From contig CP060758.1 in the NCBI GenBank assembly GCA_023205875.1, forward strand, positions 930,001 through 994,000: a stretch of DNA of 64,000 nucleotides. Reading direction: 5' to 3'. The position numbers and the translations under genes were made by a program. Below the pieces are notes generated by a model. That model ran no database searches, was not told where the DNA came from, and saw only the letters and a program-made list of their open reading frames with translations. Positions 3,001 through 43,222 of this stretch are shown one piece after another. The stretch's first letter is position 1; the number at the start of each line of letters is the position of its first letter. The stretch is from Chloropicon primus (lineage: Eukaryota).

Positions 3001-4140
3001 TTCTCGTTTGATCCAATGATTTGGTGCAAGTGAGGGTTCACGCTACTCAAGTGAATTATGGGCGTGCTCGCTGCGTTCATCAAAGCGTCCATGGTGTGGA
3101 TGAGGCCGGCCGCACCTGCGCCTGGTTCAGTGTGACCAATGCTTGATTTACCTGCAGCCAAGTTCAGAGGGTGGTCTGCTACACGATTTCCCATCAACAC
3201 GGCATTCAAAGCACCGACTTCAATAGGATCGCCAAGTGGCGTTCCAGTACCGTGCATTTGCAGCAGACTTACGTCTGCACCGTCTAAAGACTTGTGTTGC
3301 AATGCTGCTCTTACGACCATTTGCTGTGCAGGACCATTAGGAGCAGTCAACGCACTGGATCTTCCGTCTTGATTTACAGCTGTTCCTAGCACGGCAACGG
3401 GCAGGCTGTCGCTGGAATCTGCTGCTCCACTGCTGTCATCAGCACTTTCCAAGCAAAGGGCACCGCAGAATTCTCCCCTCACATAGCCATCTGCTGAAGC
3501 ATCAAGGGTCTTGCACCTTCCGTCTGCACTGAGCATACCTGCCTTATGGAACATCATTGTTGTATCTGGTGTTGACAAGATGTTTACACCTGCAACAATG
3601 CTTGTCGTCTTCGAGAAGTTTCTCTGTGTGTTTGCAATGTGTGTTGTCACAAGGGACGAGGAACAAGCAGTGTCGATGCTCATGGCTGGTCCTCGGAAGT
3701 CAAACATGAAAGATATCCTTCCTGAAGCAACACTCAAAGCTCCTCCTGTTGCACTGTAAGTAGTCACTCCAGATTGATATTTACTGCACAGTCGGCCGTA
3801 ATCAGTGTTTGAGATTCCAACAAACACGCCGACGGGGCAGGTGTTATCAAGCGCCTTGCAACCAAACTTCAACTCAAGAATTATCTGAATCAATGCTCGT
3901 TGTTGCACGTCCATCAGCATGGACTCCCCTAGGCCAAGGCCTGTGCAGGAAATGTCAAAACCAGCGACGTTTTCCATGAAGGACCCATAAGTTGGAGGTC
4001 TCACATTACTGTATTCTTTCGATACTGAATCCAAATCCCACCGAGTAAACGGAACTCTTGAGATAGTATCAGTCCTAAGCCTTGAGGATGTTGTAATACC
4101 AGAGGGCCCCTTTAGCGCAATAGAGGTACATAACGTGTTC
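1..4140 (-). other. PKS module 8: KS-DH-ER-KR (truncated by the window edge)
   Basis: Near-identical to module 7. The KR is cut at FSSVAAALGSPGQ. Confidence 0.88.
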
Positions 4141-7100: not shown

Positions 7101-10100
7101 TTGGAACTTGGTCATGTAGTTCAAACCAACTTGATGCATCGCATCGTAAAGAACGACCGATGGAATGGGTACAGCAGATTTTACCCTCAAGTTTTCTTTG
7201 CTAAGAGACAATGAAGTCGATGCAATTTCTTCTGAAGGCTCGTCCACCGATTTGATCCAGCCCAAAGATGCCCTGAAATGAGCAGTACCAAAGCCCGTGC
7301 TGTTCCTCTTGGAAAGCGAGGAGATGTCGAACTTTGCATCGCCGAGCGTATGCACACTAATCTGAACCACAACATCATCCGCCTTGCCCATGGATTGAGG
7401 CAGTACAAGAGGGGCAGGAATGGCAGCCTGTTCCACAACAATAGATTCAATCGCACCATCTGTCATGAGATGTCCAAGTGCCGAACCCATCTCCAGGTAT
7501 CCCGCACCAGGGTACAAGGGTTTGTTTTGAATCTGGTGATCCCACAAGTAAGAATGCAAGGCCCTTGTCAACGTCGTCTCAAGCTTGACAACTCCATCGA
7601 CATCCACGCGAGCACACTTCGACAACAAGGGGTGCACAGGAGGCAAAACCCAGCACCTCTGTGGTCGCCAGCTCAGTACTGCATTCTCCTTGCTGAACAC
7701 TGAAAACGGGGTACAACCCAAAATGGCATGACTGTTCGTTCCTTGGAACGCAAACGAGCTTACACCGCCCACAAGGTCGGCATCTGCGACATTTTGAGAG
7801 ATACCAAAGGACAACTTTGGCAAGTTGTACTTCGAGTTCTCGTTTGATCCAATGATTTGGTGCAAGTGAGGGTTCACGCTACTCAAGTGAATTATGGGCG
7901 TGCTCGCTGCGTTCATCAAAGCGTCCATGGTGTGGATGAGGCCGGCCGCACCTGCGCCTGGTTCAGTGTGACCAATGCTTGATTTACCTGCAGCCAAGTT
8001 CAGAGGGTGGTCTGCTACACGATTTCCCATCAACACGGCATTCAAAGCACCGACTTCAATAGGATCGCCAAGTGGCGTTCCAGTACCGTGCATTTGCAGC
8101 AGACTTACGTCTGCACCGTCTAAAGACTTGTGTTGCAATGCTGCTCTTACGACCATTTGCTGTGCAGGACCATTAGGAGCAGTCAACGCACTGGATCTTC
8201 CGTCTTGATTTACAGCTGTTCCTAGCACGGCAACGGGCAGGCTGTCGCTGGAATCTGCTGCTCCACTGCTGTCATCAGCACTTTCCAAGCAAAGGGCACC
8301 GCAGAATTCTCCCCTCACATAGCCATCTGCTGAAGCATCAAGGGTCTTGCACCTTCCGTCTGCACTGAGCATACCTGCCTTATGGAACATCATTGTTGTA
8401 TCTGGTGTTGACAAGATGTTTACACCTGCAACAATGCTTGTCGTCTTCGAGAAGTTTCTCTGTGTGTTTGCAATGTGTGTTGTCACAAGGGACGAGGAAC
8501 AAGCAGTGTCGATGCTCATGGCTGGTCCTCGGAAGTCAAACATGAAAGATATCCTTCCTGAAGCAACACTCAAAGCTCCTCCTGTTGCACTGTAAGTAGT
8601 CACTCCAGATTGATATTTACTGCACAGTCGGCCGTAATCAGTGTTTGAGATTCCAACAAACACGCCGACGGGGCAGGTGTTATCAAGCGCCTTGCAACCA
8701 AACTTCAACTCAAGAATTATCTGAATCAATGCTCGTTGTTGCACGTCCATCAGCATGGACTCCCCTAGGCCAAGGCCTGTGCAGGAAATGTCAAAACCAG
8801 CGACGTTTTCCATGAAGGACCCATAAGTTGGAGGTCTCACATTACTGTATTCTTTCGATACTGAATCCAAATCCCACCGAGTAAACGGAACTCTTGAGAT
8901 AGTATCAGTCCTAAGCCTTGAGGATGTTGTAATACCAGAGGGCCCCTTTAGCGCAATAGAGGTACATAACGTGTTCTGGACATCACCGAAAGTTTGTGAA
9001 TCACAGCCCAAAGTCGTATCTGTGACTGTCACCTTCACTCCTGACAAGGATCGCATACTGTCACATATGAACGTTTGCATTGAATCCAGCGTAGGATAGT
9101 CAAATACCACCGTCCCTGGAAGTTCAATCGCAAAAACGCGTTCCAAATCTGTCCGCAACTCTGTGGCACCCAATGAATCCAAGCCAGCAGCCATGAGGGG
9201 CTCGTCCGGCTGGACATCATGACCAATAACGCCGCAGACGACTGACTTAAGATGACTTCGAATCTGGTCTTCATCCATGACAGGTGCTGCTCCTTGTCCA
9301 GTCACAAAACTGATATCTGGCACCTGTTGAGCAGCACTAACAGCAAATTCAACTGAAGCATGCTCACTCAAGTAATGCGTCTTCTTTGGGATATGGCTCA
9401 TGAACACAGGCCAATTAAATGGATTGACGACATCTATCGGCGTGGGCGTCATGCTTTGCATGCTCTGCATGACACAAGCCAATGCAGACATACCCTCCTC
9501 GGCTGTCAAGGAGGACATTCCCGTCCTTTGCAAACGCAGAGCTGTCTGCTCGTTCTGCGAAGCCATTCCGCCTCCAGACCAGGCACCCCAGCAAATACTA
9601 GAAGCAGTAGATCCCATGCTCATTTGACGCACGGCGAAAACATCTAGGTACGCGTTGGCTGCACCATAGTTGGATTGGCCTGGGGAGCCCAGAGCTGCTG
9701 CGACAGACGAAAACATGATAGAGGAGTCCAACCTGATGTTGGACGTGAATCTGCTGAGAATATCGAGTGCACGTTGCTTTGGAGCAAAGACACTTCTGCA
9801 CTTCTGGATAGACTGCTTCAGCAGTGTTGCATCTGCTAGCACACCTCCTGCGTGAATCATCACATCAATTTGGTGTTGCATCACTTGAACCACTCCTTCG
9901 ACATCACTTGTCAAGGAAGCATCACACTTCATTAAGGATTGCACCATCAAGATCTGTGACGATCTGGAGCAGATCTTCTCAGCGTAAGTTGCACTCGCAT
10001 GACCTGATCTGCCCAGAGCAACAGTGTGGTGGATGGGCAAGCCCGTGTTCCATGCACAAAGCGCAGAACCCAATGAGCCTGCACCTCCTGTGATCACAGC

Positions 10101-13100
10101 TGTCTCCTGCATTCCAAAGGAAACATCTCTTCCTGGGCATACAACAACTTTACCTACATGCTTGGCTTGGGACATTTGACGCAAGGCAGCATGTACGGAA
10201 CCAAGACTGTGGATCACCTGAGGCAAAGGTCCAATGCTGCCAGAAGCGAGGAAGCGAGCCGTTTGCAACATCATCTGCTGCATTCTGTGTGGCGGCAAGA
10301 AATCCACAGCAAGCAGCTCGTATGTCACATCCTGACGCTCCATCCTCACAGACTGGCGTGACCAAATGTCACGCTTTCCAATCTCAACCATCCTACCTCC
10401 ACTGCCCAAAGTGGACAAGGTTGCTCCTACCATACCTGACGACGTCAAGGAGTTCAAAGCAATATCCACACCACCAGTGTAGGACACCAACTCTGGATAC
10501 CGGGTATCTCTCGAGTTCACCACATGCTGAAGCCCCAACGACCTCAGCAAAGAGCGCTTGCGGCTACTTCCAGCCGTGGCCAAGGCGTTGGAACCACTGG
10601 CTTGGACAACCTGAAGAGCGGCAAGACCGACTCCTCCTGCTGCGGCGTGAATGAGGACATTGTCATTGCGCTGCATGCAAGACGCGTGGGAGAAGGCAAT
10701 CTGCACTGTCACAAACACGGTGGGCACTGTGGCTGCGGCACTGAATCCAACATTACTGGGCAAGGAAACGAACAAATCAGAAAGTGCATTCACTTCCGTA
10801 CCAAGACAACCCTCTGCGAGGCCAAACACTGACTGACCAACACAGAAGCCGTCTGAACCCTTGGTCTCCACAACCACACCAGAGCAATCGCCTCCTGGCA
10901 AACCTGGGTCCCCGGGATACATGTCCAAAATATTGAGAACATCACGGAAATTCAGTCCAATGGCGTGTACCTGAAGGATCATATCCATGGTGGTTTTGGA
11001 GAGGGGCTCTAAGGCTTGCAGGGCCAAGCTACTGAAAGAACCTCGTGGACTTGGAACAAGCTGCATGTGAGCTTGCTTCAAGTGAGCTCTGCTGGCGATG
11101 AGAGTAGGCACCAAGACCATTCCCCCACGGAGAGCTTCTCCTTGAACATCTGATTCTGCACTTCTCATCAGCAGAGAGTCGACAATCAACGCGTTCGCAT
11201 TGGAACCAACGTTGATTGTGTCCTCGATAGATACGTCAACACCACCGCAGGTCAAATTCTGGCATTCCTGTGCTACAGTGCGCATCAGACCCCACAGGTG
11301 TCCCTGAGACGTGTTGACGTCGTTGGTGGGGCAATCAAGAGCTCCATAAGCACCGAAGGTTTGAAGGTTCATAGGCATATGACCCTTGTTGATCAAATCA
11401 CGCACAACGCTGAGGGCCAACCCCATCGAGCTGATTTGAGAATCAGGTTCTAAAATAAGCATTGAATCGGTAGCAGAACCCAAAGGACTCGATGACTGAG
11501 CAAGACAAGCATTCCACTGCACAAAGTAGGTCGTGGATCTCTTTTCTTCAATGGATGCCTTGGAGACCGAGGTCCCTGAAGACATGCTCTTGGTCAACAA
11601 GTTGTACACAGTGCTTGAAGACAGGCCGTTTGGATCTTGAAGGCTATGCTGGCTCATGCTCTTCTGAGCCGAACTAAACACAGTCTTTGCGACAGCATGC
11701 AAAACATTGGATTTGGTTCGCTGGTGCACAACAAAAGCGTCAATTCCAGCAGGAACTTGTGTTTGTTGATCCTCCCCTGATCCGTTATCGACCAAACTTG
11801 TAGCTCCAAGCTGGAGGCAACCATCCAGAGCGCTAGGGTGTGTATACATGCCATTCAAAGCACCACTCTCCTGGCCACCAATGTGAGCATACGCCTCACC
11901 CGACAGGTGTCCGTTGTGTCTTATGGCCTTCAGTACTTGGAACTTGGTCATGTAGTTCAAACCAACTTGATGCATCGCATCGTAAAGAACGACCGATGGA
12001 ATGGGTACAGCAGATTTTACCCTCAAGTTTTCTTTGCTAAGAGACAATGAAGTCGATGCAATTTCTTCTGAAGGCTCGTCCACCGATTTGATCCAGCCCA
12101 AAGATGCCCTGAAATGAGCAGTACCAAAGCCCGTGCTGTTCCTCTTGGAAAGCGAGGAGATGTCGAACTTTGCATCGCCGAGCGTATGCACACTAATCTG
12201 AACCACAACATCATCCGCCTTGCCCATGGATTGAGGCAGTACAAGAGGGGCAGGAATGGCAGCCTGTTCCACAACAATAGATTCAATCGCACCATCTGTC
12301 ATGAGATGTCCAAGTGCCGAACCCATCTCCAGGTATCCCGCACCAGGGTACAAGGGTTTGTTTTGAATCTGGTGATCCCACAAGTAAGAATGCAAGGCCC
12401 TTGTCAACGTCGTCTCAAGCTTGACAACTCCATCGACATCCACGCGAGCACACTTCGACAACAAGGGGTGCACAGGAGGCAAAACCCAGCACCTCTGTGG
12501 TCGCCAGCTCAGTACTGCATTCTCCTTGCTGAACACTGAAAACGGGGTACAACCCAAAATGGCATGACTGTTCGTTCCTTGGAACGCAAACGAGCTTACA
12601 CCGCCCACAAGGTCGGCATCTGCGACATTTTGAGAGATACCAAAGGACAACTTTGGCAAGTTGTACTTCGAGTTCTCGTTTGATCCAATGATTTGGTGCA
12701 AGTGAGGGTTCACGCTACTCAAGTGAATTATGGGCGTGCTCGCTGCGTTCATCAAAGCGTCCATGGTGTGGATGAGGCCGGCCGCACCTGCGCCTGGTTC
12801 AGTGTGACCAATGCTTGATTTACCTGCAGCCAAGTTCAGAGGGTGGTCTGCTACACGATTTCCCATCAACACGGCATTCAAAGCACCGACTTCAATAGGA
12901 TCGCCAAGTGGCGTTCCAGTACCGTGCATTTGCAGCAGACTTACGTCTGCACCGTCTAAAGACTTGTGTTGCAATGCTGCTCTTACGACCATTTGCTGTG
13001 CAGGACCATTAGGAGCAGTCAACGCACTGGATCTTCCGTCTTGATTTACAGCTGTTCCTAGCACGGCAACGGGCAGGCTGTCTCTGGAATCTGCTGCTCC

Positions 13101-16100
13101 ACTGCTGTCATCAGCACTTTCCAAGCAAAGGGCACCGCAGAATTCTCCCCTCACATAGCCATCTGCTGAAGCATCAAGGGTCTTGCACCTTCCGTCTGCA
13201 CTGAGCATACCTGCCTTATGGAACATTTGGGACAGATTTGGAAGCAGTATGGTCTTCACACCAGCTGATATCGATGTCGTTGATGATCGCTCTGTTTCCC
13301 TCAATGCCAAATGTATGGATACCAAAGAAGATGAGCAAGCGGTATCAATAGCTACCGATGGTCCCTTAAGATTGAAGAGGTAAGATACACGTCCACAAGC
13401 AACGCTTGTGGCACTCCCTGATGCTGTGTAAGCGGAAATTGCGCTATATTGTTGCACCATATCGGAATAGTCAACTGTTGAAATACCCAAGAAAAAGGCA
13501 ACGTAATTGGATTCGGACTTCCATGCTTTCTGCCAGGACAAAGCACTAATATCCTGCAGCATATGACGTTGCTCTGGGGACATGGTGACTGCTTCATTGT
13601 TTGATATTTGGAAAACACTGATGTCGAAAGAGTCCAAAATCTCAATGAAAGAACCAAAAGGACAAAGTGAACTTGATCCACTCAATAAAGTAGCATCCCA
13701 TCGACTGTAAGGAACCCTTGATAACGCATCCCCACAACATTGCAAATCTCCTTTTGTCGCAACGTAATCAGATATAGACACAAGAGCAGCACTTGCGTCA
13801 GTAGCCTTCACATCCATGTCTACATCGACGGCTGAAGCGCAACAATCATCCCCCATAGAAACACTCAAATATTCTGACAAAGAATGTACCGTTGGATAAT
13901 CAAATATCAATGTGCCTGGTAGTTGCAGACCCAGCACACCCTCAAGGGTGTTCCTGAATTCGACCGCACCAAGAGAATCCAAACCTGCATCCATCAATGG
14001 CTCGTGCAGACCAACATTCTTTCCAAGGACACTCTGTGTCACATCGAAAACGCTTTTCTCGACATCTTCTGGTCTCAAAGTTTTCATGTTGTTCCTAGAC
14101 AAGTCACTTGTGTTGTGAACGCTTGAAGATGTCTGCACTTGGACTGACACCTCAGATTCGAATTCCGCAAAGAATGGTGAACGCACAGAAGGATTGGCAA
14201 GGAACTTGGACCAATCAAATGGGTTCACACACTGGATAGGAGAAAGCGATTCCATGCTCTGAGTGCATGTCGCAAACGTACTTGCAAGTGTCGACAAGGC
14301 TTGCAAGCCTATCGCAGGACTCACGGCATTCATTCCAGTACGCTCAAGCTTCTGAAGCACCTTTGCTGATGCCATTCCACCACCAGACCACGCACCCCAT
14401 TGAATGCTCGATGCTCCAACACCGGTATGTTGAAGACTCACAGATAAGCTGTCAAGGTATGCATTTGCTGCACTGTATCCGCCTTGGCCAGGTGAGCCCA
14501 AGAGAGATGCAACAGAAGAAAAGTAAAATATCTGCTGTAAAGGATATTCACCCATGCCTTCATGAAGACGATGAGCTGCATCTACCTTTGATCCGTACAC
14601 CAACCTCTGAGAACGGACGGTTTGGTTGGACAAAGAGGCATCAGACAAAACACCACCAGAGTGAATCAAGCCTGTGAAGTCTTCTCCGACCCTCTTGAGA
14701 CCTGAAAGATCTTCCAAGCTCGATGCATCACACTTCAGCATGGTGACAAGACCTCTGATTCCAAGACCAAACGCAGACCTGTCGTGTAGTTGTGCGTTTC
14801 TACCTGAACGGCCCAACAGTGTGGCACTTGCACATCCAGATTTGCACAACCAACTTCCAACAAGTCTCCCTAAGGAGCCCATACCTCCTGTAATCATCAC
14901 CTTCGCATCACTAACGCTGTTCTCAAAAGTCAAGCTGTTGGTAAGCACAACTTTACCTACATGCTTGGCTTGGGACATTTGACGCAAGGCAGCATGTACG
15001 GAACCAAGACTGTGGATCACCTGAGGCAAAGGTCCAATGCTGCCAGAAGCGAGGAAGCGAGCCGTTTGCAACATCATCTGCTGCATTCTGTGTGGCGGCA
15101 AGAAATCCACAGCAAGCAGCTCGTATGTCACATCCTGACGCTCCATCCTCACAGACTGGCGTGACCAAATGTCACGCTTTCCAATCTCAACCATCCTACC
15201 TCCACTGCCCAAAGTGGACAAGGTTGCTCCTACCATACCTGACGACGTCAAGGAGTTCAAAGCAATATCCACACCACCAGTGTAGGACACCAACTCTGGA
15301 TACCGGGTATCTCTCGAGTTCACCACATGCTGAAGCCCCAACGACCTCAGCAAAGAGCGCTTGCGGCTACTTCCAGCCGTGGCCAAGGCGTTGGAACCAC
15401 TGGCTTGGACAACCTGAAGAGCGGCAAGACCGACTCCTCCTGCTGCGGCGTGAATGAGGACATTGTCATTGCGCTGCATGCAAGACGCGTGGGAGAAGGC
15501 AATCTGCACTGTCACAAACACGGTGGGCACTGTGGCTGCGGCACTGAATCCAACATTACTGGGCAAGGGAACGAACAAATCAGAAAGTGCATTCACTTCC
15601 GTACCAAGACAACCCTCTGCGAGGCCAAACACTGACTGACCAACACAGAAGCCGTCTGAACCCTTGGTCTCCACAACCACACCAGAGCAATCGCCTCCTG
15701 GCAAACCTGGGTCCCCGGGATACATGTCCAAAATATTGAGAACATCACGGAAATTCAGTCCAATGGCGTGTACCTGAAGGATCATATCCATGGTGGTTTT
15801 GGAGAGGGGCTCTAAGGCTTGCAGGGCCAAGCTACTGAAAGAACCTCGTGGACTTGGAACAAGCTGCATGTGAGCTTGCTTCAAGTGAGCTCTGCTAGCG
15901 ATGAGAGTAGGCACCAAGACCATTCCCCCACGGAGAGCTTCTCCTTGAACATCTGATTCTGCACTTCTCATCAGCAGAGAGTCGACAATCAACGCGTTCG
16001 CATTGGAACCAACGTTGATTGTGTCCTCGATAGATACGTCAACACCACCGCAGGTCAAATTCTGGCATTCCTGTGCTACAGTGCGCATCAGACCCCACAG

Positions 16101-19100
16101 GTGTCCCTGAGACGTGTTGACGTCGTTGATGGGGCAATCAAGAGCTCCATAAGCACCGAAGGTCTTCAGATGCACGCATTGGATTTCCTGTGCTTCTTGC
16201 TTCTGACATTCCTGGAAGTATTGGAGCTCATGAAAGATGTTGTCCTGACATGTAACTTCCATTCTGGGTTCCAAAGCGAGCATCTCAACTTGAGGCAATG
16301 ACGCGGTCCACGACATAGAGTATATTGTCTTTGTGACCGCAAGGCTTGTGCGGTCAACCTTCTTCTGGTCAATGGAGCGTGCCGACAATCCAGCAAGAGA
16401 CATCAGAGGGCCTGATCCAGACGTTTTAAAAGTGTAGTCCAGAGTGAAGGTATGGTTCACGGCACCGATGGAGGGCCTTTGAGTTGCTTCTACGGCGGTA
16501 TCTGCAGTGAAGGCATCACCATTCAAGAACAGCGCTTCAAACCCTGTTGGCACGCGTGATGACATTGAAACCTCCTCCAAGGATTGCACACATTGGCCCA
16601 GTTGTAGACCGCAGTCAAACATATGCGGATCAACTACGAACTTAGTTCGGTCGCTGAACGAAGATCGCACAAGGTTTGCCTGTAAAGACTCCGTTCTTTT
16701 TGACGACCCAATCTCGGATTGCATGGTAGTTGATTCCTTGATATTGATCTGTTGGACAGAAAAATGCACGACCTTGGAGTGTTTGGTCGAACTAGAAAGT
16801 GTGAGATCACCTTGATGAGAAACTTTTGTTTCTACATGTTGTCGGCTTCCTTGTACGATTTGGAGGGCTGCAGGGATAGTTCCAGCATTGTAACCAAAGG
16901 TCTCATTATTGGGATTTGCACTCTTTGCACTGGCTGCAACCACCTCAAGAAGACCAGTGAATGGCATGATGCATTTACCGTGCACAATGTGATCCAACAA
17001 TGTTTGCATACAAGGATGGGCAAGATCAGCAACAAAGGTGACATGATCAGGCGCTACAACAACCTTCCCCAGACTCAAAGATGTGAACGGTTTGAACTTG
17101 ATCAATGCTTGTTGTTGAATTTTGCGACCAATGACTCTCATCTCTGTATTCTGAGTTCCCTTGTGTATCGCAACATGTGAGTTTGTACCTTGGAACGCAA
17201 AAGAGCTTACACCAACAGAAATGCCATGGGTATGCTGGACATTTGAATACTCTCTTGGCATGTGCAACGCAAAAGACGCTGCATGTTGTCTGTCCCCAGA
17301 AGAAACCAGATTCGCAATATAGGGGTTAATCGATGTCAGGTGCAGAACAGGCCTAGAAGTATGCTTTGCTGCAACAGTAATTGCATTCAACAAACCGTTC
17401 ATGCCAGCAGCTGGTTCTGCATGTCCAACCCAAGACTTTGATGAGGATAAAGCAAGAGGAACAAAACTCGCCCTACTTTCAAAAACCTTCTTCAAAGCTC
17501 CCAATTCGATAGGATCGCCTAAGCTCGTACCAGTTCCATGCATTTCTATGCCACAGATATCCTCGGCAGATAGAGGACCATCTGCAAGACTACGACGGAC
17601 AACCTCTTGCTGTGAAGGACCATTGGGCGCAGTCAGCGTACTTGACCTGCCATCCTGATTAACAGAGGAACCAGCAATGACAATATGCCCCTCTTCGGAA
17701 CTGTTGCTTCCATCTACGAGAGGTTCTAACAGGAGCGTACCACATGATTCACCGCGCACGTAACCATCTGCTCTCGCATCAAGAGTCTTGCATCGTCCAT
17801 CTCGAGAGAGCATTTTCGCCATCGCCACATATAGTGTTGATGAACAATCAGACACGATATGAACACCTCCTGCAATGCTCTGGCAACTATACTCTTGAAC
17901 ATATTTCGAGGCCAAGGATGTAGCAACCAAACTTGAAGAACAAGCTGTATCCACAGCGAGAGAAGGTCCGCAAATACCCAGTGTGAACGAAATTCGACCA
18001 CAAGTCACACTCACACCCATACCAGTTGCATGGAATGGCGTTCCTTCGGAATGCTTCATCAACCCAATATTATGTCCTGTAGGAGCAACACCAACATACA
18101 CACCTGTATTCTTGCCCTGCATGTCACCAAAAGCAAAAGAATCATAACACATCTCAAGAAGCAAGTACTGCTGTGGATCCATGTAGGTTGCCTCGGCACT
18201 ACCAATCTGGAATGCTTCTCTGTCGAAATATTCGATATCTTCCATGAAAGAACCAAAGCGCGTTGTCAGCAAGCTACTATCAACAGTGTAAAGATCCTCA
18301 GCATCCCAACGGTTGTAAGGCACAACACGAATGCCATCTTTCCCTATCGAAGAAGTCTGCAATGCATGCTTTGGCTCAGAAAAATTGTAGTTGGAAATGA
18401 CACACGCAATATCAGATTGCGATCTAGGCACTAGTTCTTGATCTATCTTTGCCTCTTCTCTCATGCCTCCCAGCATTGTGATAACAAACTCAGATAGAGA
18501 ATGTACCGTTGGATAATCAAATATCAATGTGCCTGGTAGTTGCAGACCCAGCACACCCTCAAGGGTGTTCCTGAATTCGACCGCACCAAGAGAATCCAAA
18601 CCTGCATCCATCAATGGCTCGTGCAGACCAACATTCTTTCCAAGGACACTCTGTGTCACATCGAAAACGCTTTTCTCGACATCGTCTGGTCTCAAAGTTT
18701 TCATGTTGTTCCTAGACAAGTCACTTGTGTTGTGAACGCTTGAAGATGTCTGCACTTGGACTGACACCTCAGATTCGAATTCCGCAAAGAATGGTGAACG
18801 CACAGAAGGATTGGCAAGGAACTTGGACCAATCAAATGGGTTCACACACTGGATAGGAGAAAGCGATTCCATGCTCTGAGTGCATGTCGCAAACGTACTT
18901 GCAAGTGTCGACAAGGCTTGCAAGCCTATCGCAGGACTCACGGCATTCATTCCAGTACGCTCAAGCTTCTGAAGCACCTTTGCTGATGCCATTCCACCAC
19001 CAGACCACGCACCCCATTGAATGCTCGATGCTCCAACACCGGTATGTTGAAGACTCACAGATAAGCTGTCAAGGTATGCATTTGCTGCACTGTATCCGCC

Positions 19101-22100
19101 TTGGCCAGGTGAGCCCAAGAGAGATGCAACAGAAGAAAAGTAAAATATCTGCTGTAAAGGATATTCACCCATGCCTTCATGAAGACGATGAGCTGCATCT
19201 ACCTTTGATCCGTACACCAACCTCTGAGAACGGACGGTTTGGTTGGACAAAGAGGCATCAGACAAAACACCACCAGAGTGAATCAAGCCTGTGAAGTCTT
19301 CTCCGACCCTCTTGAGACCTGAAAGATCTTCCAAGCTCGATGCATCACACTTCAGCATGGTGACAAGACCTCTGATTCCAAGACCAAACGCAGACCTGTC
19401 GTGTAGTTGTGCGTTTCTACCTGAACGGCCCAACAGTGTGGCACTTGCACATCCAGATTTGCACAACCAACTTCCAACAAGTCTGCCTAGGGTTCCGAGA
19501 CCGCCTACGATGACGAATTTTTCAGAATTGAAGGTACTGTTGAAGTGCTGGAAATGCACTTTCGTTGGCTTTAGATGGGGATGGAAGGAAATTCCGTGAG
19601 AATTGCCACATTCCTGATGAATGATATCGGAGTGATGTGATTCTACGGTCAGTAAAACGGCATTGTGTTTTCCTCCAACTTCTTGCTTTGAAAAACTCGT
19701 TGACTTGAAATCAGTGTGCCTGATTTCCTGTGCTACAGTGCGCATCAGACCCCACAGGTGTCCCTGAGACGTGTTGACGTCGTTGATGGGGCAATCAAGA
19801 GCTCCATAAGCACCGAAGGTCTTCAGATGCACGCATTGGATTTCCTGTGCTTCTTGCTTCTGACATTCCTGGAAGTATTGGAGCTCATGAAAGATGTTGT
19901 CCTGACATGTAACTTCCATTCTGGGTTCCAAAGCGAGCATCTCAACTTGAGGCAATGACGCGGTCCACGACATAGAGTATATTGTCTTTGTGACCGCAAG
20001 GCTTGTGCGGTCAACCTTCTTCTGGTCAATGGAGCGTGCCGACAATCCAGCAAGAGACATCAGAGGGCCTGATCCAGACGTCTTAAAAGTGTAGTCCAGA
20101 GTGAAGGTATGGTTCACGGCACCGACGGAGGGCCTTTGAGTTGCTTCTACGGCGGTATCTGCAGTGAAGGCATCACCATTCAAGAACAGCGCTTCAAACC
20201 CTGTTGGCACGCGTGATGACATTGAAACCTCCTCCAAGGATTGCACACATTGGCCCAATTGTAGACCGCAGTCAAGCATCTCAACTGAAATGTTTGAATC
20301 AGTAGCGTAAAGCCCAGTTGTAATTGTCCCAACACTGTTAGGACCGATAGACTGCGGCTGCAAAGATTTATGCTTTTGATTTTCTTTGCTACTCTCGACT
20401 TCATGTACACGAGCGTGAGTAGCTTGCAAAACAACAATTTCATTGCTCAAGGAAGCTCTCTTCATCACTACCGAATCTTCTTCTAATGCAATTGTGATTG
20501 CCGTAGAATCACGCGGGTTGCGTTGATCGTGGGGGCATACCACAGAAGCATTACTAATTCCAACAGCTTCAGAGAATACCAACTTGGTTGCGTAGTACAT
20601 GGGAACAGCGTACACTCCCAAACTTGCGGTACTATGTGCAAAGCAACAACGAACCTCAAATTGTATCGGATGAGAGCTAGCCAACTTGAAGTCATTGAAT
20701 GGGTAAATGCTTTTGATGTGCCCGATGTTCGATATCCATTTGAAAGACAAATGGCGAATACTTGCGGTCAGGGTCACACAATGCCCACTAACACGTTCAG
20801 ACAAAACTGAATGGCCATTAGTTCCCTGAAACGCAAAAGAGCTTACACCAACAGAAATGCCATGGGTATGCTGGACATTTGAATACTCTCTTGGCATGTG
20901 CAACGCAAAAGACGCTGCATGTTGTCTGTCCCCAGAAGAAACCAGATTCGCAATATAGGGGTTAATCGATGTCAGGTGCAGAACAGGCCTAGAAGTATGC
21001 TTTGCTGCAACAGTAATTGCATTCAACAAACCGTTCATGCCAGCAGCTGGTTCTGCATGTCCAACCCAAGACTTTGATGAGGATAAAGCAAGAGGAACAA
21101 AACTCGCCCTACTTTCAAAAACCTTCTTCAAAGCTCCCAATTCGATAGGATCGCCTAAGCCCGTACCAGTTCCATGCATTTCTATGCCACAGATATCCTC
21201 GGCAGATAGAGGACCATCTGCAAGACTACGACGGACAACCTCTTGCTGTGAAGGACCATTGGGCGCAGTCAGCGTACTTGACCTGCCATCCTGATTAACA
21301 GAGGAACCAGCAATGACAATATGCCCCTCTTCGGAACTGTTGCTTCCATCTACGAGAGGTTCTAACAGGAGCGTACCACATGATTCACCGCGCACGTAAC
21401 CATCTGCTCTCGCATCAAGAGTCTTGCATCGTCCATCCCGAGCAAGCATACCAGATGATTCAAACATTAATGAAGTAGACTTCAAAATTGTAGTGTTCAC
21501 TCCTGAAACTGCTGACGATGATCCGACAGGTACCCTTATAACATTCTGCTTTGCAATACTAAGAGCAACCAAACTTGAAGAACAAGCTGTATCGATGGAA
21601 ACCGCAGGACCCTTCAAACCGAAAAAGTAAGAAACTCTTCCAGCTGCACAGCTCATCGCAATTCCAGTCGCAAGGAAAGGTGGAATCTTCGTGACCGATT
21701 TCAGCAACAGTGAATTGTAGTCCGAGCTCGAAATACCAACGAACACTCCAACATCACAGGATGCAAAGCCATTCCGATTTAAAACTATGGCATTCGAACC
21801 CAGCAGCAAGCAATGCTGTGGATCCATGTAGGTTGCCTCGGCACTACCAATCTGGAATGCTTCTCTGTCGAAATATTCGATATCTTCCATGAAAGAACCA
21901 AAGCGCGTTGTCAGCAAGCTACTATCAACAGTGTAAAGATCCTCAGCATCCCAACGGTTGTAAGGCACAACACGAATGCCATCTTTCCCTATCGAAGAAG
22001 TCTGCAATGCATGCTTTGGCTCAGAAAAATTGTAGTTGGAAATGACACACGCAATATCAGATTGCGATCTAGGCACTAGTTCTTGATCTATCTTTGCCTC

Positions 22101-25100
22101 TTCTCTCATGCCTCCCAGCATTGTGATAACAAACTCAGATAGAGAATGTACCGTTGGATAATCAAATATCAATGTGCCTGGTAGTTGCAGACCCAGCACA
22201 CCCTCAAGGGTGTTCCTGAATTCGACCGCACCAAGAGAATCCAAACCTGCATCCATCAATGGCTCGTGCAGACCAACATTCTTTCCAAGGACACTCTGTG
22301 TCACATCGAAAACGCTTTTCTCGACATCGTCTGGTCTCAAAGTTTTCATGTTGTTCCTAGACAAGTCACTTGTGTTGTGAACGCTTGAAGATGTCTGCAC
22401 TTGGACTGACACCTCAGATTCGAATTCCGCAAAGAATGGTGAACGCACAGAAGGATTGGCAAGGAACTTGGACCAATCAAATGGGTTCACACACTGGATA
22501 GGAGAAAGCGATTCCATGCTCTGAGTGCATGTCGCAAACGTACTTGCAAGTGTCGACAAGGCTTGCAAGCCTATCGCAGGACTCACGGCATTCATTCCAG
22601 TACGCTCAAGCTTCTGAAGCACCTTTGCTGATGCCATTCCACCACCAGACCACGCACCCCATTGAATGCTCGATGCTCCAACACCGGTATGTTGAAGACT
22701 CACAGATAAGCTGTCAAGGTATGCATTTGCTGCACTGTATCCGCCTTGGCCAGGTGAGCCCAAGAGAGATGCAACAGAAGAAAAGTAAAATATCTGCTGT
22801 AAAGGATATTCACCCATGCCTTCATGAAGACGATGAGCTGCATCTACCTTTGATCCGTACACCAACCTCTGAGAACGGACGGTTTGGTTGGATAAAGAGG
22901 CATCAGACAAAACACCACCAGAGTGAATCAAGCCTGTGAAGTCTTCTCCGACCCTCTTGAGACCTGAAAGATCTTCCAAGCTCGATGCATCACACTTCAG
23001 CATGGTGACAAGACCTCTGATTCCAAGACCAAACGCAGACCTGTCGTGTAGTTGTGCGTTTCTACCTGAACGGCCCAACAGTGTGGCACTTGCACATCCA
23101 GATTTGCACAACCAACTTCCAACAAGTCTCCCTAAGGAGCCCATACCTCCTGTAATCATCACCTTCGCATCACTAACGCTGTTCTCAAAAGTCAAGCTGT
23201 TGGTAAGCACAACTTTACCTACATGCTTGGCTTGGGACATTTGACGCAAGGCAGCATGTACGGAACCAAGACTGTGGATCACCTGAGGCAAAGGTCCAAT
23301 GCTGCCAGAAGCGAGGAAGCGAGCCGTTTGCAACATCATCTGCTGCATTCTGTGTGGCGGCAAGAAATCCACAGCAAGCAGCTCGTATGTCACATCCTGA
23401 CGCTCCATCCTCACAGACTGGCGTGACCAAATGTCACGCTTTCCAATCTCAACCATCCTACCTCCACTGCCCAAAGTGGACAAGGTTGCTCCTACCATAC
23501 CTGACGACGTCAAGGAGTTCAAAGCAATATCCACACCACCAGTGTAGGACACCAACTCTGGATACCGGGTATCTCTCGAGTTCACCACATGCTGAAGCCC
23601 CAACGACCTCAGCAAAGAGCGCTTGCGGCTACTTCCAGCCGTGGCCAAGGCGTTGGAACCACTGGCTTGGACAACCTGAAGAGCGGCAAGACCGACTCCT
23701 CCTGCTGCGGCGTGAATGAGGACATTGTCATTGCGCTGCATGCAAGACGCGTGGGAGAAGGCAATCTGCACTGTCACAAACACGGTGGGCACTGTGGCTG
23801 CGGCACTGAATCCAACATTACTGGGCAAGGGAACGAACAAATCAGAAAGTGCATTCACTTCCGTACCAAGACAACCCTCTGCGAGGCCAAACACTGACTG
23901 ACCAACACAGAAGCCGTCTGAACCCTTGGTCTCCACAACCACACCAGAGCAATCGCCTCCTGGCAAACCTGGGTCCCCGGGATACATGTCCAAAATATTG
24001 AGAACATCACGGAAATTCAGTCCAATGGCGTGTACCTGAAGGATCATATCCATGGTGGTTTTGGAGAGGGGCTCTAAGGCTTGCAGGGCCAAGCTACTGA
24101 AAGAACCTCGTGGACTTGGAACAAGCTGCATGTGAGCTTGCTTCAAGTGAGCTCTGCTGGCGATGAGAGTAGGCACCAAGACCATTCCCCCACGGAGAGC
24201 TTCTCCTTGAACATCTGATTCTGCACTTCTCATCAGCAGAGAGTCGACAATCAACGCATTCGCATTGGAACCAACGTTGATTGTGTCCTCGATAGATACG
24301 TCAACACCACCGCAGGTCAAATTCTGGCATTCCTGTGCTACAGTGCGCATCAGACCCCACAGGTGTCCCTGAGACGTGTTGACGTCGTTGGTGGGGCAAT
24401 CAAGAGCTCCATAAGCACCGAAGGTTTGAAGGTTCATAGGCATATGACCCTTGTTGATCAAATCACGCACAACGCTGAGGGCCAACCCCATCGAGCTGAT
24501 TTGAGAATCAGGTTCTAAAATAAGCATTGAATCGGTAGCAGAACCCAAAGGACTCGATGACTGAGCAAGACAAGCATTCCACTGCACAAAGTAGGTCGTG
24601 GATCTCTTTTCTTCAATGGATGCCTTGGAGACCGAGGTCCCTGAAGACATGCTCTTGGTCAACAAGTTGTACACAGTGCTTGAAGACAGGCCGTTTGGAT
24701 CTTGAAGGCTATGCTGGCTCATGCTCTTCTGAGCCGAACTAAACACAGTCTTTGCGACAGCATGCAAAACATTGGATTTGGTTCGCTGGTGCACAACAAA
24801 AGCGTCAATTCCAGCAGGAACTTGTGTTTGTTGATCCTCCCCTGATCCGTTATCGACCAAACTTGTAGCTCCAAGCTGGAGGCAACCATCCAGAGCGCTA
24901 GGGTGTGTATACATGCCATTCAAAGCACCACTCTCCTGGCCACCAATGTGAGCATACGCCTCACCCGACAGGTGTCCGTTGTGTCTTATGGCCTTCAGTA
25001 CTTGGAACTTGGTCATGTAGTTCAAACCAACTTGATGCATCGCATCGTAAAGAACGACCGATGGAATGGGTACAGCAGATTTTGCCCTCAAGTTTTCTTT

Positions 25101-28100
25101 GCTAAGAGACAATGAAGTCGATGCAATTTCTTCTGAAGGCTCGTCCACCGATTTGATCCAGCCCAAAGATGCCCTGAAATGAGCAGTACCAAAGCCCGTG
25201 CTGTTCCTCTTGGAAAGCGAGGAGATGTCGAACTTTGCATCGCCGAGCGTATGCACACTAATCTGAACCACAACATCATCCGCCTTGCCCATGGATTGAG
25301 GCAGTACAAGAGGGGCAGGAATGGCAGCCTGTTCCACAACAATAGATGCAATCGCACCATCTGTCATGAGATGTCCAAGTGCCGAACCCATCTCCAGGTA
25401 TCCCGCACCAGGGTACAAGGGTTTGTTTTGAATCTGGTGATCCCACAAGTAAGAATGCAAGGCCCTTGTCAACGTCGTCTCAAGCTTGACAACTCCATCG
25501 ACATCCACGCGAGCACACTTCGACAACAAGGGGTGCACAGGAGGCAAAACCCAGCACCTCTGTGGTCGCCAGCTCAGTACTGCATTCTCCTTGTTGAACA
25601 CTGAAAACGGGGTACAACCCAAAATGGCATGACTGTTCGTTCCTTGGAACGCAAACGAGCTTACACCGCCCACAAGGTCGGCATCTGCGACATTTTGAGA
25701 GATACCAAAGGACAACTTTGGCAAGTTGTACTTCGAGTTCTCGTTTGATCCAATGATTTGGTGCAAGTGAGGGTTCACGCTACTCAAGTGAATTATGGGC
25801 GTGCTCGCTGCGTTCATCAAAGCGTCCATGGTGTGGATGAGGCCGGCCGCACCTGCGCCTGGTTCAGTGTGACCAATGCTTGATTTACCTGCAGCCAAGT
25901 TCAGAGGGTGGTCTGCTACACGATTTCCCATCAACACGGCATTCAAAGCACCGACTTCAATAGGATCGCCAAGTGGCGTTCCAGTACCGTGCATTTGCAG
26001 CAGACTTACGTCTGCACCGTCTAAAGACTTGTGTTGCAATGCTGCTCTTACGACCATTTGCTGTGCAGGACCATTAGGAGCAGTCAACGCACTGGATCTT
26101 CCGTCTTGATTTACAGCTGTTCCTAGCACGGCAACGGGCAGGCTGTCGCTGGAATCTGCTGCTCCACTGCTGTCATCAGCACTTTCCAGGCAAAGGGCAC
26201 CGCAGAATTCTCCCCTCACATAGCCATCTGCTGAAGCATCAAGGGTCTTGCACCTTCCGTCTGCACTGAGCATACCTGCCTTATGGAACATCATTGTTGT
26301 ATCTGGTGTTTGAGTGAGATTGATCCCAAAGATACTTGCTCTTTTCATGCTGATGTTGGTGCTGAATGTAGAGGTTGCAATAGACAATGCTACAAGGGAC
26401 GAGGAACAAGCAGTGTCGATTGACATGGAAGGACCTGTCAATGCAAACATGAAAGATATCCTTCCTGAAGCAACACTAAGTGCGGATCCTGACGCGGAAA
26501 ATGGAGTGATTCGATTGCTGTATTTGTCCACCAATCGAGAATGATCAATACTGGATATTCCCACAAAGATACCTGTGTCCATATTGGTTCTTTCGTGCAG
26601 TAGTGAATTTGCACACTGAAGAAGTAACCTTTGCTGGGAGTCTATGAAAATAGACTCATTCTTCGATAGAGCAAACGCAGAATGATCGAACTCCTGAGAT
26701 CCACTGAGGAAACTACCAAAAGCTGGTAAGCCTTCAAATGTCGAAGATTCACACCATCTGTAGTACGGAACTCGAGAAAGGGCATCCTTTATGCAACCTG
26801 GACCTGAAGCAGGTACGTGATCCATTTTGTGATGAGCACAAATAGCAAGATTCAGATCTCGTGCCAAAGGTACTGACGTTTTGAGAGTTTCATCAACAGC
26901 CACAACTTCCTCAGTATTTACGAGAGATTGTATGTGTTCAACCAGAGAGGAAGGAGTAGGATAATCAAACGCAACAGTACCAGGGAGCTCTATCCCCAAG
27001 GTCTGCTCGAGTTGATTCCTCAGCTCGACTGACGAGAGCGAATCAAGTCCATTTTCCATAAATAGACCATCCTTCTCAATACTTCGACCCAAAATATTTT
27101 GAAGCGTCACACCTACAACCCTTTTAAGTTGTTCAATGTCAAAGTGACAGAGTGTGGTCGAGGGAACAGTGTCTCCCTTGATTGCATCTTCCAAAGTCTC
27201 TTTTCTGAAGTCATAGACACCTTCAAAGAAACACTCATTGTCATCATTCATATACGAGCCAAGGAATTTGTGCCAGTCAACATCTAGTGCAGCTATCGAA
27301 GAAGGTCTATGCTCAACACTTCTATTTGAATTCATGATGTACGTATTGAGAAGAACTCCTTTCATTGGATCTAGTCCAGAAAGGCCTATTTTCTCAAGCC
27401 TCCTCAAATTATCCTGATTTCTTGCTGCCATTCCCACCTCTGCCCAAGCACCCCATTGGATTGACGATGACTTGAGTCCACGTGAAGACAAATCTGATAA
27501 ATATGCATCCATGTACGCATTAGAAGCAGTATAAGAGCACTGGCCAGGAGATCCAAGCACCACAGAAAATGAAGAGAAAGCCACCTCAACGTCGACCGGA
27601 AGTCTTTCACAAGCATCATGGACATTTTGTATTCCAGAGGCCTTCGGGGCAAACACGCTCCGTGCCCTGTTCAAATCTGTTTTCAGAATTGAGCTGTCAA
27701 CCAAGATTCCACTTGCATGGATAACTGTCAATGGTGAAGAAGCAAGATGAATCTCCTCGAACGATGACACCTCGTCTTTGCTCGTAACATCAACTTTGGA
27801 AAGCATCAATGTGTTTCTGCCATAGCACAGATTCGTCAATTTCGAATCTTTACTTGCGCTTGAAGCTTTTCCTGAGCGCCCCGTAAGAATCAATTCGTTA
27901 AAGCACTCACTTTGCATGCACGATGAAACAAAGAGTCCCAAAGAGCCAAGTCCTCCAAACATCGCCAGGGACTTGCAAGAATCCAATACAGAGTGCGTCA
28001 CGGAATCCACTACAACTTTGCCGATTTGCTTTGATGAAGCTAATCCTTTCAGGGCTCTGACAACAGAATCCATACTGAAAGACGTAAAGGGAAGTGGCAC

Positions 28101-31100
28101 ACATTCACCCAAACCCAAAAACGCAGCAGCTCGTTCCAGATATCTCGAATTGATATGCTGCGGCAAGAAATCCACAGCAAGCAGCTCGTATGTCACATCC
28201 TGACGCTCCATCCTCACAGACTGGCGTGACCAAATGTCACGCTTTCCAATCTCAACCATCCTACCTCCACTGCCCAAAGTGGACAAGGTTGCTCCTACCA
28301 TACCTGACGACGTCAAGGAGTTCAAAGCAATATCCACACCACCAGTGTAGGACACCAACTCTGGATACCGGGTATCTCTCGAGTTCACCACATGCTGAAG
28401 CCCCAACGACCTCAGCAAAGAGCGCTTGCGGCTACTTCCAGCCGTGGCCAAGGCGTTGGAACCACTGGCTTGGACAACCTGAAGAGCGGCAAGACCGACT
28501 CCTCCTGCTGCGGCGTGAATGAGGACATTGTCATTGCGCTGCATGCAAGACGCGTGGGAGAAGGCAATCTGCACTGTCACAAACACGGTGGGCACTGTGG
28601 CTGCGGCACTGAATCCAACATTACTGGGCAAAACGGACAGTAAATTCTTTGAGGTCACTGCATGAGAAGCTAACGAACCAATTGCAAAGCCGAATACAGA
28701 TGTTCCTGGTGCAAAAGCACTGCAATCACCTGAATTGAACACTGTCCCTGAACAATCTGCGCCAGGCATTCCAGGCTCTCCGGGATACATGTCCAAAATG
28801 TTGAGAACATCACGGAAATTTAATCCCACGGACGCAATTCTTATCTCAACTTCCCCGCAACTTAAGGGTGTGGTTGATGGCGAATACTGCTTCAAAGCTA
28901 AGCTCGAGAAGGATCCTCTTGGCTGGGGAACAATCTGGAAGGCAGAGACCTTCATAGGATTGACTCTGTGAGAGTCTCTTAACCTGGTCATCTGTGAATG
29001 GTATTCTGTCGTTCCGTCCGTAGTCAGTATGCCTTGGCCCCAGTTGGAATAACCTCCAGGGGAGACAAACGTATCAGATTCTGGAATTGTTTGTGACACG
29101 TGGTAAATCTTGGAGCTGTAATTGCATTCCTGTGTGAATGACTTGACTGCACCCCATATAGCATGCTGTAAGCATCTTGAATCAAGACTCCCATTTTCTG
29201 CCACAATTTTGTTTGCATCAAAGACGGACTTCAATTTCAGATGATATCGATCAATCTTCAAAGTACTTTCCAGATCTTGCATCAAGCTGAATGACGTCCA
29301 CAGTCCTGGAACTCTGCTGTTTCTTTGAGGATTATCCAGATCGTGAACAACAGTAAAGTTATTCCTGTCACCGGTCTCAAAGGCGATAGAAGTCATTTCT
29401 TGCTTGCTCTCTACCAGTGTGTTCTGCACACATAACCACGAGACATGGTACATCGAATCAGTCTTCTCCACCTTCATTGTTGCCATTTGAGTTTTGGCTT
29501 TGACGGCATATCCAAGGATGGACTCGATACTCGCAACATTATCACCCGAGGCTGTAGTCAGATTCAAATCGTTTGAAGACCCTGCAACAATTTCGGGTGC
29601 CAATGATGCAGTAGCGTAAGTGCTACAGACATCACTGCATCTTGAACAAACGTAGACTTCTATGGACACTGGGATTTCCGAAGATGGCTCTTCACCCTTG
29701 TCGACCTTGGAGATGACATCTCTTCCTGCTATAACGTGCAATGCAGCGTCTAAGACAGCAGGATCGACCAAAAAGTCATTGCTATTGACGTTTGAGCCAA
29801 TCTTGCCCACTGCTGTTGAGTGGTCTCCAACCCAAAGAGTTTCCAAGAGTTTGAACGCATCTTTGTACTGCAAACCAAGGTTCGACAGCTTGTTGTACAG
29901 ATCAACAACATTGCAAGGCCTGTACACGGCTTGCCGCATGAGTTTCTCGCTTGCCAAGTCATTCTCCAAGGGCTCGATGACACTGTATGAGCCTGCAAAA
30001 TGTTCTTCCCTGTCCGATCTCGAACAAAACTCTCCAGATACGTTGTTTAGACAAAAAGTCAAAGGAGCAGATTCCATGTTCAACACCAGCGCAGACATGA
30101 AAGCAATCTTCGTTGCTACAACGTTTTGTGAAGTTCTTCTATCGGTGAGCGCAAAACATTCAGAAGCGCATTCCAGAAAGGCGGCTCCGGGCAAAATATG
30201 CATCCCTTGGACAATATGATCATGCAGAAAGCCCAACGACGGTGCTCCCAAGTTGATTTCAATCATGAGAGTAGCATCACCACCATGCTTCAATGATGTT
30301 GTGAAGGGTCCAACTGATTCTCCTATGCAATAGAAAGCCATTGTAAAGAGAGAGCTGGGATTGGTTCCTGTGCTGATGTTGTTTGGACCTTCTGCCATGC
30401 TCACAACCACATTTGCATTTGTTCCCTGAAATGCAAAGGAGCTCACAGACCCATGGGAGACGTGTGCAGCCAGTGACCTGTTCAGGACACGCTCTTCCCT
30501 TGGCACAGAGCTTTGCTTGAGTGCAGGCACGACGTACGGATTGACGGATTTGAGATGACCAAACGAAGCTGACCTGTGCATGGCTGCCTCACAAATGAGC
30601 TGAAACAAACCTGAAACACCTGCTGCAGCTTCAGTGTGGCCAATCTTTGACTTCACGGAACTCAGGTTCAAAGGATCATCAGTTTTCGTCTGGCGGTATA
30701 CTGTTGTGAGTGCATTTACTTCAATAGGATCTCCTAGCGGAGTTCCAGTTCCGTGCATCTCAGTAAAGAGTATCTCGCTTGGTAATATTCTCCCTTTTGA
30801 CACAGCCTCAGAGAGAACTTGCTGTTGAGCGACTCCACTAGGAGCAGTGAGAGAGCTTGACCGCCCATCTTGATTCACAACCGCAGATACTATATGGACT
30901 CCAGAAAATACGGATTCTTCGCCCTCGTCCAAATTGCGTCTAGACAGCAGCACGAGACCACAGGCATCACCCCTGACATAACCGTCTGCTGATTCATCGA
31001 GAGTTTTACACCTTCCATCTCGGGCAAGCATACCAGACTGGTGGAACATCAGCGTGACCTCAGGGGCCAGAATTATATTCACACCCCCTGAGATGGCAAA

Positions 31101-41663: not shown

Positions 41664-42634
41664 GGTGCGCTCGCGCACTCCCTGTACTCCCCTTCGAACG
41701 AAGCGGGCGTCAGAATCGCAATCGCAGCGTTCTCAGCGGAGTGAGGTTCTCGCTTACCTCGCGCCTATCCTGCGTTCGTCCTCGACACCCTCCCGAGAGC
41801 AAAAAAAAAACGTGAGTCCGATGAATGTAACCACTTACCACTCCCCAAACGTGTCGAGGAGGTTTAACTGAGCAACTGCGGATTGCCTCTGTATCCCGCC
41901 GACCCTTTTCGACGCGACTCGCTCGATCCCCAGCACTAGGAGGTCTGACCCGTCTGTTCCCCTGACTCCGACTGTATCAATGCACCCCGCAGCGCAGGCA
42001 TTCCTTGCGGCCAAACCCGGCAACCTCGCAACGCTCCCCTTCGCCCCGAGCTCCCCCAGCGACACGAAACTCAACTAAACCAGCGATGCGATGCGGTTGC
42101 GTCAGTACCTCTGCACCCGTCGAGCAGGCGCGCCAAAATCCGTCCCCCCAGCACGGCGGGCGACGAAACTCGCCGACTCGCGCGTCCCGTCCCGCCGAGC
42201 ACAATCTCCAGGCACTCACCGTTCTCTCGTCTCCCTTGACGCGCAGCGCGTGTCGTGTCGCGTCGTCGTGTCGTGTCGCCCTCGATCGATCGCTCCTCCT
42301 TCTCTCTCTCTCTCCTGCCTCGTCGCCGCCCGCTCTCTTCTGCTCTCCCCCCCTCGATCGATCGATCGATCAACCGTTTCTTTGGCGGAAAAGGGGATTT
42401 CCACTCGGTTGGCCTCTTTCGTGGATTTGAAAATCGATCGAGCCGCGGACCAGCCCTCGACGCGATGTGGGATATCTACACGAGGCGAAAGGCGTTACAT
42501 TTTTTCGGCATTTCGCGCCCAAATTCTGAAATCGAGCAGAGAGACAGAGAGACAGAGAGAGAGCCAAGAGGGTGAGACTGAGGCCATGGAGGGAGGACGG
42601 GAACACCACCCCGAGAAACGAACCCTTGCTTCCT

Positions 42635-43087: not shown

Positions 43088-43222
43088 ATGTGGACAAGGA
43101 AGCGAGTCCTCCTCGTCTTGGCCGCACTCTGCCTGGCGGGGAGGCTCGCGGGGGCGCAGGACGGTACGTGCCAGGACGAACCTTCGCTCTTCTTTCCGAT
43201 CTGCGTGATATCACTCTGACAC

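Follow-up and report, generated by a model that had tools for sequence, protein, structure and literature searches.

A giant AT-less PKS gene

The 64,000-nt stretch of Chloropicon primus contig CP060758.1 analysed here (the window; all coordinates refer to it) carries a hybrid polyketide synthase (PKS) gene, present as a single minus strand open reading frame (ORF) at 3..41678 that encodes 13,892 amino acids without a stop and is open at the window start. Eight ketosynthase (KS) domains, KS1 to KS8, lie within the window, and the distal part of the gene, from KS9 onward, lies beyond its start. The ORF also encodes two near-identical acyl-CoA-ligase-type domains, one of which follows a condensation (C) domain. 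Pfam scans over the whole ORF gave no match to the acyltransferase (AT) family, and the domain map, multimodular KS-(DH-ER)-KR-ACP without an integrated AT, is that of a trans-AT PKS.

3..41678, minus strand: hybrid PKS ORF, CoA-ligase-ACP2, KS1-DH-KR-ACP, C-CoA-ligase-ACP2, then modules KS2 to KS8
Modules 2, 3 and 5, minus strand: KS2-, KS3- and KS5-DH-ER-KR-ACP
Module 4, minus strand: KS4-DH0-KR-ACP, where DH0 is a dead DH
Modules 6, 7 and 8, minus strand: KS6, KS7 and KS8, each with DH-ER-KR(-ACP)

Modules 2, 3, 5, 6 and 7 contain a DH with His and Asp, plus ER and KR. Module 4 has a KR and a DH remnant missing the His motif (no HxxxGxxxxP), and ER is absent; it is therefore predicted from its sequence to hand a beta-hydroxyl to KS5. 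A first-pass annotation made from the sequence had called this module KR-only, which is right as to the KR and the missing ER but overlooks the dead DH remnant. The closest named relatives are AT-less PKSs from Chloropicon, Trebouxia, Cymbomonas, Pedinophyceae, Monoraphidium and Bathycoccus, with KS identity of about 40-47%. Neighbouring genes are eukaryotic (COG6, ubiquitin-PI4K, kinesin), and a glycerol kinase gene is also nearby. Together with the chlorophyte relatives, the eukaryotic neighbours make a green-algal host likely.

Near-identical tracts flank an unlike segment in KS4 and KS5

Base-level comparison of the modules around KS4 and KS5 revealed two shared tracts separated by an unlike segment. 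The upstream tract (18169-19484 for KS5, 21814-23129 for KS4) has 1 mismatch in 1,316 nt and the downstream tract (17194-17801 and 20830-21437) has 1 mismatch in 608 nt. Between them lie 367 nt in KS5 and 376 nt in KS4 with 35% amino acid and 48% nucleotide identity. A 30-nt identical patch on DTACSSSLVA splits both segments, so that the single-copy pieces are 17802-17921 and 17952-18168 in KS5 and 21438-21563 and 21594-21813 in KS4. The two segments share 42 residues, 21 of them with the same codon, and 10 of those 21 fall in the patch, which from its sequence we infer to be a micro-conversion tract. The first-pass annotation had described near-identical flanks around an unlike stretch, and its boundaries for both segments proved exact to the base; the patch and the motifs it quoted are present. 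The segments, the tracts and the related features of the neighbouring modules are listed here; P0241 is a fragment from a close relative, and the post-KR clade is described below.

21438..21813, minus strand: KS4 spared segment, with G-ISSS-DY loop at 21717-21737 and catalytic Cys at 21582-21584; 83% identical to P0241
17802..18168, minus strand: KS5 spared segment, with G-VAPT-GH loop at 18072-18092, FHAT, GVH, YV and catalytic Cys at 17940-17942; post-KR clade
21564..21593 (KS4) = 17922..17951 (KS5), minus strand: 30-nt identical patch
18169..19484, minus strand: upstream shared tract, KR4-ACP4-KS5 N-flank
21814..23129, minus strand: upstream shared tract, KR3-ACP3-KS4 N-flank
17194..17801, minus strand: C-half tract of KS5, running from DGRCK through the two catalytic His
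20830..21437, minus strand: KS4 C-half tract, counterpart of 17194-17801
20258..20829, minus strand: second spared stretch, N-half of the dead DH of module 4, no HxxxGxxxxP motif
16601..17193, minus strand: second spared stretch, N-half of the module 5 DH, with catalytic His (DHIVHGKCIMP)
19485..19724, minus strand: junction unique to module 4, where ER stands in other modules
26311..26765, minus strand: KS3 N-half and segment, unique except for patches 26444-26477 and 26392-26420 common to KS7/8
13227..13880, minus strand: KS6 linker, N-flank and segment, unique
23209..26310, minus strand: KS C-half-DH-ER tract of module 3, common to modules 6-8
1..13226, minus strand: tandem array, period 4,836 nt, 99.95% identical, unit beginning within KS at MFHKAGML

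Three differences set module 4 apart from module 5, and each bears on retention of the hydroxyl: the KS segment, the His half of the DH, and the ER. The DH C-halves of the two modules are shared while the DH N-halves differ, and in relatives the corresponding DH is dead too.

KS3, KS6 and KS7/8 have C-halves that are 100% identical and segments that are 43-55% identical. Because the array unit starts inside the KS, KS7 and KS8 are the same over their full length, and modules 6-8 need no more than a tandem duplication joined in mid-KS. The statement that KS3 and KS7/8 have only the C-half in common did not hold, as they also share two inner patches, of 34 and 29 nt, together with a tract that extends into the segment by 17 codons. 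Module 3 is chimeric, sharing KS-DH-ER with modules 6-8 and KR-ACP with modules 4-5; this and the sharing on both sides of the KS4/KS5 segments make the gene a mosaic beyond one tandem duplication. The C-halves of KS4 and KS5 are 99.8% identical in nucleotides, whereas identity to the relative P0241 is 77% in amino acids, the pattern of concerted evolution.

Read data and the assembly

Flanks that merely seem identical through collapsed or polished repeats are very improbable, and an artefact origin of the KS4/KS5 pattern is unlikely. Such an origin would account for there being only one base difference per tract, and the whole region is not covered by any single contig among those listed; the KS5 segment is thinly covered in X4-X6, where X5 has a 233-nt piece across the upstream edge of the segment. 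The copy number nevertheless fits the depth steps in run X1, which may be the source sample: its contigs have depths of about 140x, 275x and 470x, corresponding to 1, 2 and 3 copies, and one of them ends at 17801. X4, a contig of a different study, covers 20830-23238 with 2 differences, and so crosses the KS4 segment with both flanks. The ORF is intact across 41 kb, and the ancestry of the segments is consistent with module order in other algae.

At 21161, one of the two differences between the KS4 and KS5 tracts, HGTGT-S becomes HGTGT-G in KS4. The residue in P0241 is S, and X4 carries the KS5 base, so that this mismatch may be a recent mutation, a strain difference or an error.

The KS4 and KS5 segments have separate ancestries

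The comparison covered 188 KSs. They came from 47 AT-less, eukaryote-like proteins chosen by hand, among them that of the window and those of 4 of 17 loci, the remaining loci being left out as having no long ORF or as duplicates of L003. In the segment tree (39 rows) KS5 pairs with fragment P0246 (100/97) within a clade of 11 rows (98/96); the partner of KS4 is P0241 (100/99). Segment-wise phylogenies had been proposed as a check in the first-pass annotation, and the segment does split the pair: an approximately unbiased (AU) test rejected KS4+KS5 monophyly (p-AU 0.0038). KS4 and KS5 pair as sisters in the C-half tree, beside P0241 and outside KS5's segment clade, a placement short of significance (p-AU 0.103). 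Identity of P0241 is 83% to the KS4 segment, 33% to the KS5 segment and 77% to the C-half, so by sequence comparison the homogenisation postdates the split from P0241. The segment difference reads as old rather than as recent divergence. The direction of homogenisation favoured by the best C-half tree is from KS4 to KS5.

The clade containing KS5 has the signature of algal post-KR KSs (FHAT, CGR, GVH, YV). KS5 bears all five rare clade residues, a combination found in 6 of the 188 KSs, every one in KS5's clade. The upstream module is known for six clade members, and five of these six come after a KR module whose DH is dead. A grouping of KS5 with a long Bathycoccus branch in the first tree was discarded: it was lost once those rows were dropped, and again once P0246 was added.

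A second group of post-KR KSs (for example P0001_KS4, P0007, P0023_KS5 and P0134_KS3) has the loop G-I(Q/E)(H/Q)x-EY and is not akin to KS5's clade; green algae possibly have two separate solutions to beta-hydroxy acceptance, as far as these motifs indicate. In another alga, the equivalent neighbour pair P0132 KS2/KS3 has only the last third of the KS in common. There the post-ER member has a post-KR-type segment, which suggests a transfer in the reverse direction.

The segment contains the gatekeeping loop

An AlphaFold model of KS5 from an 82-row alignment had a predicted local distance difference test (pLDDT) score of 88.5, compared with 31 for single-sequence modelling, and fits known KS structures, including PksKS2 with a bound intermediate. 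In this model the segment spans about residues 78-199 with the catalytic Cys153 inside it, and His287 and His326 lie in the shared C-half.

The segment includes the "dimer interface loop" of Ray 2024 (PMC11321453), which was shown to gatekeep by mutagenesis, and holds positions 1-4 of that loop as well as the catalytic Cys. Position 2 of the KS4 loop lies 49 residues ahead of the Cys, the same spacing as from the VMYH-motif residue G111 to C160 in PMC13347036. The proposal that the segment holds a known gatekeeping loop, G-ISSS-DY in KS4 and G-VAPT-GH in KS5, is borne out by this position and spacing. The loops occupy the same place as the VMYH and TNGQ motifs of Ray 2024 but have other residues, which makes them putative gatekeepers, and a distinct signature marks the algal post-KR clade.

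The loop's position raises another explanation, in which the segment is retained for protein contacts: it holds a large share of the KS homodimer interface and may include the docking face for the upstream ACP, and distinct segments would hold the dimer in register. KSs are dimers. The interface loop lies in the segment (Ray 2024, PMC11321453), KS differences map to the pocket and the dimer interface in Medema 2014 (PMC4256081), and contacts would account for KS3, KS4, KS6 and KS7 differing at the same beta-state. Set against this, there is no difference between KS7 and KS8 or between P0128 KS1 and KS2, and the four P0007 KSs are 98-100% identical; ACP3, which feeds KS4, and ACP4, which feeds KS5, are also identical, and the segment shows a chemistry signal across proteins (below). 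We therefore regard protein contacts as an improbable cause overall. Dimer register is the main rival to distal chemistry or chain length for KS3, KS4, KS6 and KS7, weakened by the identical KSs of the window, P0128 and P0007.

The segment follows the upstream chemistry

The upstream class of a KS was predicted from its nearest neighbour for 92 dereplicated KSs from 118 of the 188, with four proteins and the classes unknown, loading and no-KR set aside. The segment gave the correct class for 69 of the 92 and the C-half for 51 (p=0.002), so that segment sequence follows the incoming intermediate more closely; with neighbours of >50% identity barred, the counts were 60 and 39. Among the 25 most informative columns 15 lie in the segment, and KS4 and KS5 are unlike at all of the top six.

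A C-half of at least 80% identity combined with a segment below 65% was found in 9 of 321 within-protein algal KS pairs, and the reverse in none. Three of the nine come from P0123 and P0057, so the asymmetry is repeated in other algal PKSs. P0127 (segment 66%) and P0132 (C-half 79%) are near misses. Sharing starts at alignment column ~110 in P0127, 160 in KS3/7, 167 in KS6, ~175 in KS4/5, P0123 and P0057, and ~270 in P0132. The fixed cassette of ~120 amino acids envisaged at first is therefore not supported: the downstream boundary ranges from column ~110 to ~270, and only columns ~50-105, about 55 residues past MDPQ, differ in every partly shared pair mapped. The KS4/5 tract ends just past the helix with the clade's Y-V pair, and the tract of the post-ER KS3/6/7 reaches 10-17 codons deeper.

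A neutral explanation for this geometry is that tracts begin and resolve at conserved KS motifs (MDPQ, DTACSSSL, GML-DGRCK) and the variable part is simply left over. Most mapped breakpoints do lie at conserved motifs, in columns 160-177; the C-half is more conserved overall (median 42%, against 35% for the segment); the 4,836-nt array of modules 6-8 requires just unequal crossover at one mid-KS site; and two-sided sparing is seen in KS4/KS5 only. However, DH and linker regions that diverge much more were overwritten, patches are present within the segment, none of the 321 pairs shows the reverse pattern, and the DH His half and the ER of modules 4 and 5 were spared too. In comparison with the close relative P0241, the KS4 segment is at least as conserved as the C-half (83% against 77%). 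On balance we think it unlikely that crossover geometry produced the pattern unaided.

Two of these observations can be given numerically. Background identity is 13-30% in the overwritten DH halves and linkers and 29-46% in the spared segment (KS7/8 excepted), and low similarity is thus a poor explanation of the sparing, because the less similar regions were homogenised between some modules while the segment was not. At DTACSSSLV, KS4/5 use the same codon at 9 of 9 positions and KS3/7 at 8 of 9; the remaining 19 pairs agree at 1-5 of 9, with a per-codon background of 0.29. It is thus likely that recombination reaches into the segment, yet only tracts over conserved motifs appear to be fixed.

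Probable gene conversion under a selective filter

The tract map, the conflict between the segment and C-half trees and the recurrence in other algae are observed, and they support well a concerted evolution in which the gatekeeping region of the KS is left out. As its cause we favour, with a probability of roughly 0.7, gene conversion that copies the flanks combined with selection on the substrate tunnel that preserves the KS segment position by position. Repeated conversion would have made modules 3-8 a mosaic of near-identical tracts, with the stretch after MDPQ remaining specific to each KS position since it would form the tunnel that admits the incoming chain. Tracts crossing the tunnel loops would leave the chain stalled or mis-gated and be eliminated, and those altering only invariant motifs or the C-half could be fixed. 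KS5 would then be the resident beta-hydroxy-accepting KS with its flanks replaced by KS4-type DNA. KS3, KS4, KS6 and KS7 would be kept distinct by distal chain chemistry or chain length, and KS7 and KS8 would be identical because they meet the same saturated chain.

Several points weigh against conversion filtered by selection. KS3, KS4, KS6 and KS7 all follow fully reducing DH-ER-KR modules yet differ, so that beta-state alone is insufficient, contrary to the initial idea that hydroxy versus saturated substrates were the whole cause; distal chemistry or chain length as the extra factor is inferred only. Six of the nine asymmetric pairs come from this window and the other three from P0123 and P0057, and most proteins in the algal KS set are fragments. 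The upstream class labels were automated, with relatedness partly controlled only. With sparser sampling that omitted four fragments, the AU test on the segment rejected neither KS4+KS5 (p=0.123) nor KS3+6+7 (p=0.221), and the preference for KS4 as donor has a p-AU of 0.103. P0132_KS2 has a post-KR-clade segment yet is preceded by an ER module, the members of the post-KR clade are probably orthologues rather than independent origins, and other post-KR KSs carry a different motif, IQH/QxEY. The placement of KS6 is unstable, with the next-position clade in one tree and not in another. Breakpoints at conserved motifs are likewise predicted by neutral crossover.

Relation to known systems

Concerted evolution was described for bacterial cis-AT PKSs by Medema 2014 (PMC4256081), with homogenised modules whose KS differences were limited to the substrate pocket and dimer interface. 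That study proposed that KS conversion is less neutral, i.e. selected against, and described the trans-AT pederin and psymberin clusters as without cluster-specific branching. The cis-AT comparison set has the same dip as seen here, at columns 80-100 (34%); unlike in those systems, the gene here is eukaryotic and trans-AT, and tracts mapped to the base flank an old segment on both sides. The gene resembles the chlorophyte PKSs of Shelest 2015 (PMC4661987) in being a giant AT-less PKS with near-identical modules. In the sections consulted, that paper describes module or domain duplications, not sub-domain mosaics, and the word "recombination" occurs 0 times in its main text. Conversion tracts spanning the KS C-terminus through the AT are described in PMC12391348, and redox-specificity motifs were mapped via mutagenesis by Hu 2025. 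GRINS (genetic repeats with intense skews in nucleotides; Nivina 2021, PMC8256042) are repeats of >500 bp and >80% identity ascribed to gene conversion. The tracts here have that length and identity; they were rejected as GRINS, as none of 8 exceeds 0.15 in both skews.

We found no map of sub-domain or sub-KS conversion tracts for an algal trans-AT PKS in the main texts searched, mostly those of non-subscription papers. The concept has been anticipated in bacterial PKSs, and what appears new is the eukaryotic trans-AT setting, to which concerted evolution is here extended, the two-sided sparing, the internal micro-tracts and the cross-species ancestry. The fusion point suggested in the first-pass annotation was not new: functional junctions within the KS were reported from laboratory recombination of Streptomyces cis-AT PKSs (Wlodek 2017, PMC5663706; Su 2022, PMC8792006), and Su 2022 described the middle of the KS as a fusion site of potentially general use. 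These junctions may coincide with the GML/DGRCK boundary.

KS gatekeeping is a main cause of stalling in engineered PKSs. KS4 and KS5, identical over the tracts on either side of a segment that is present in a predicted old hydroxy-accepting and a predicted saturated-accepting version, offer a direct test of whether the segment is sufficient. Whole-KS trees of algal PKSs blend two histories, and algal product prediction would be better based on the segment. A bolder proposal, which we hold only tentatively and think doubtful, is that the evolutionary module boundary in algal trans-AT PKSs crosses mid-KS and that the ~55 (up to ~120) residues after MDPQ are a portable gatekeeping cassette, enough to reprogram a shared KS scaffold. 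If true, KS4 and KS5 would be a natural isogenic pair isolating KS specificity, and would provide a general swap rule for PKS engineering.

Other features of the gene and its surroundings

The loading acyl-CoA-ligase-type domain at 39897-41662 is duplicated at 32391-34156 (both minus strand), 99.94% identical, directly after the C domain, whose HHxxxD motif is intact. C-CoA-ligase-ACP is not a standard amino-acid nonribosomal peptide synthetase module and may link two acyl chains. The ACP pairs behind both ligases (39249-39683 and 31731-32222, minus strand) have the motif G(M/L)(T/N)S, and the elongation ACPs have GxDS. Upstream of the PKS gene, plus strand ORFs at 43090-47730 have Ig-like (Big_12) and CARDB matches, and no NCBIfam match. 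G+C content falls from about 60% in the flanking genes to 45-51% in modules 2-8 (window 35600-64000 versus 1-32000). At third codon positions it is 0.34-0.38 for the unique KS segments and 0.37-0.55 for the shared tracts; module 1 and the ligase have 0.68-0.78.

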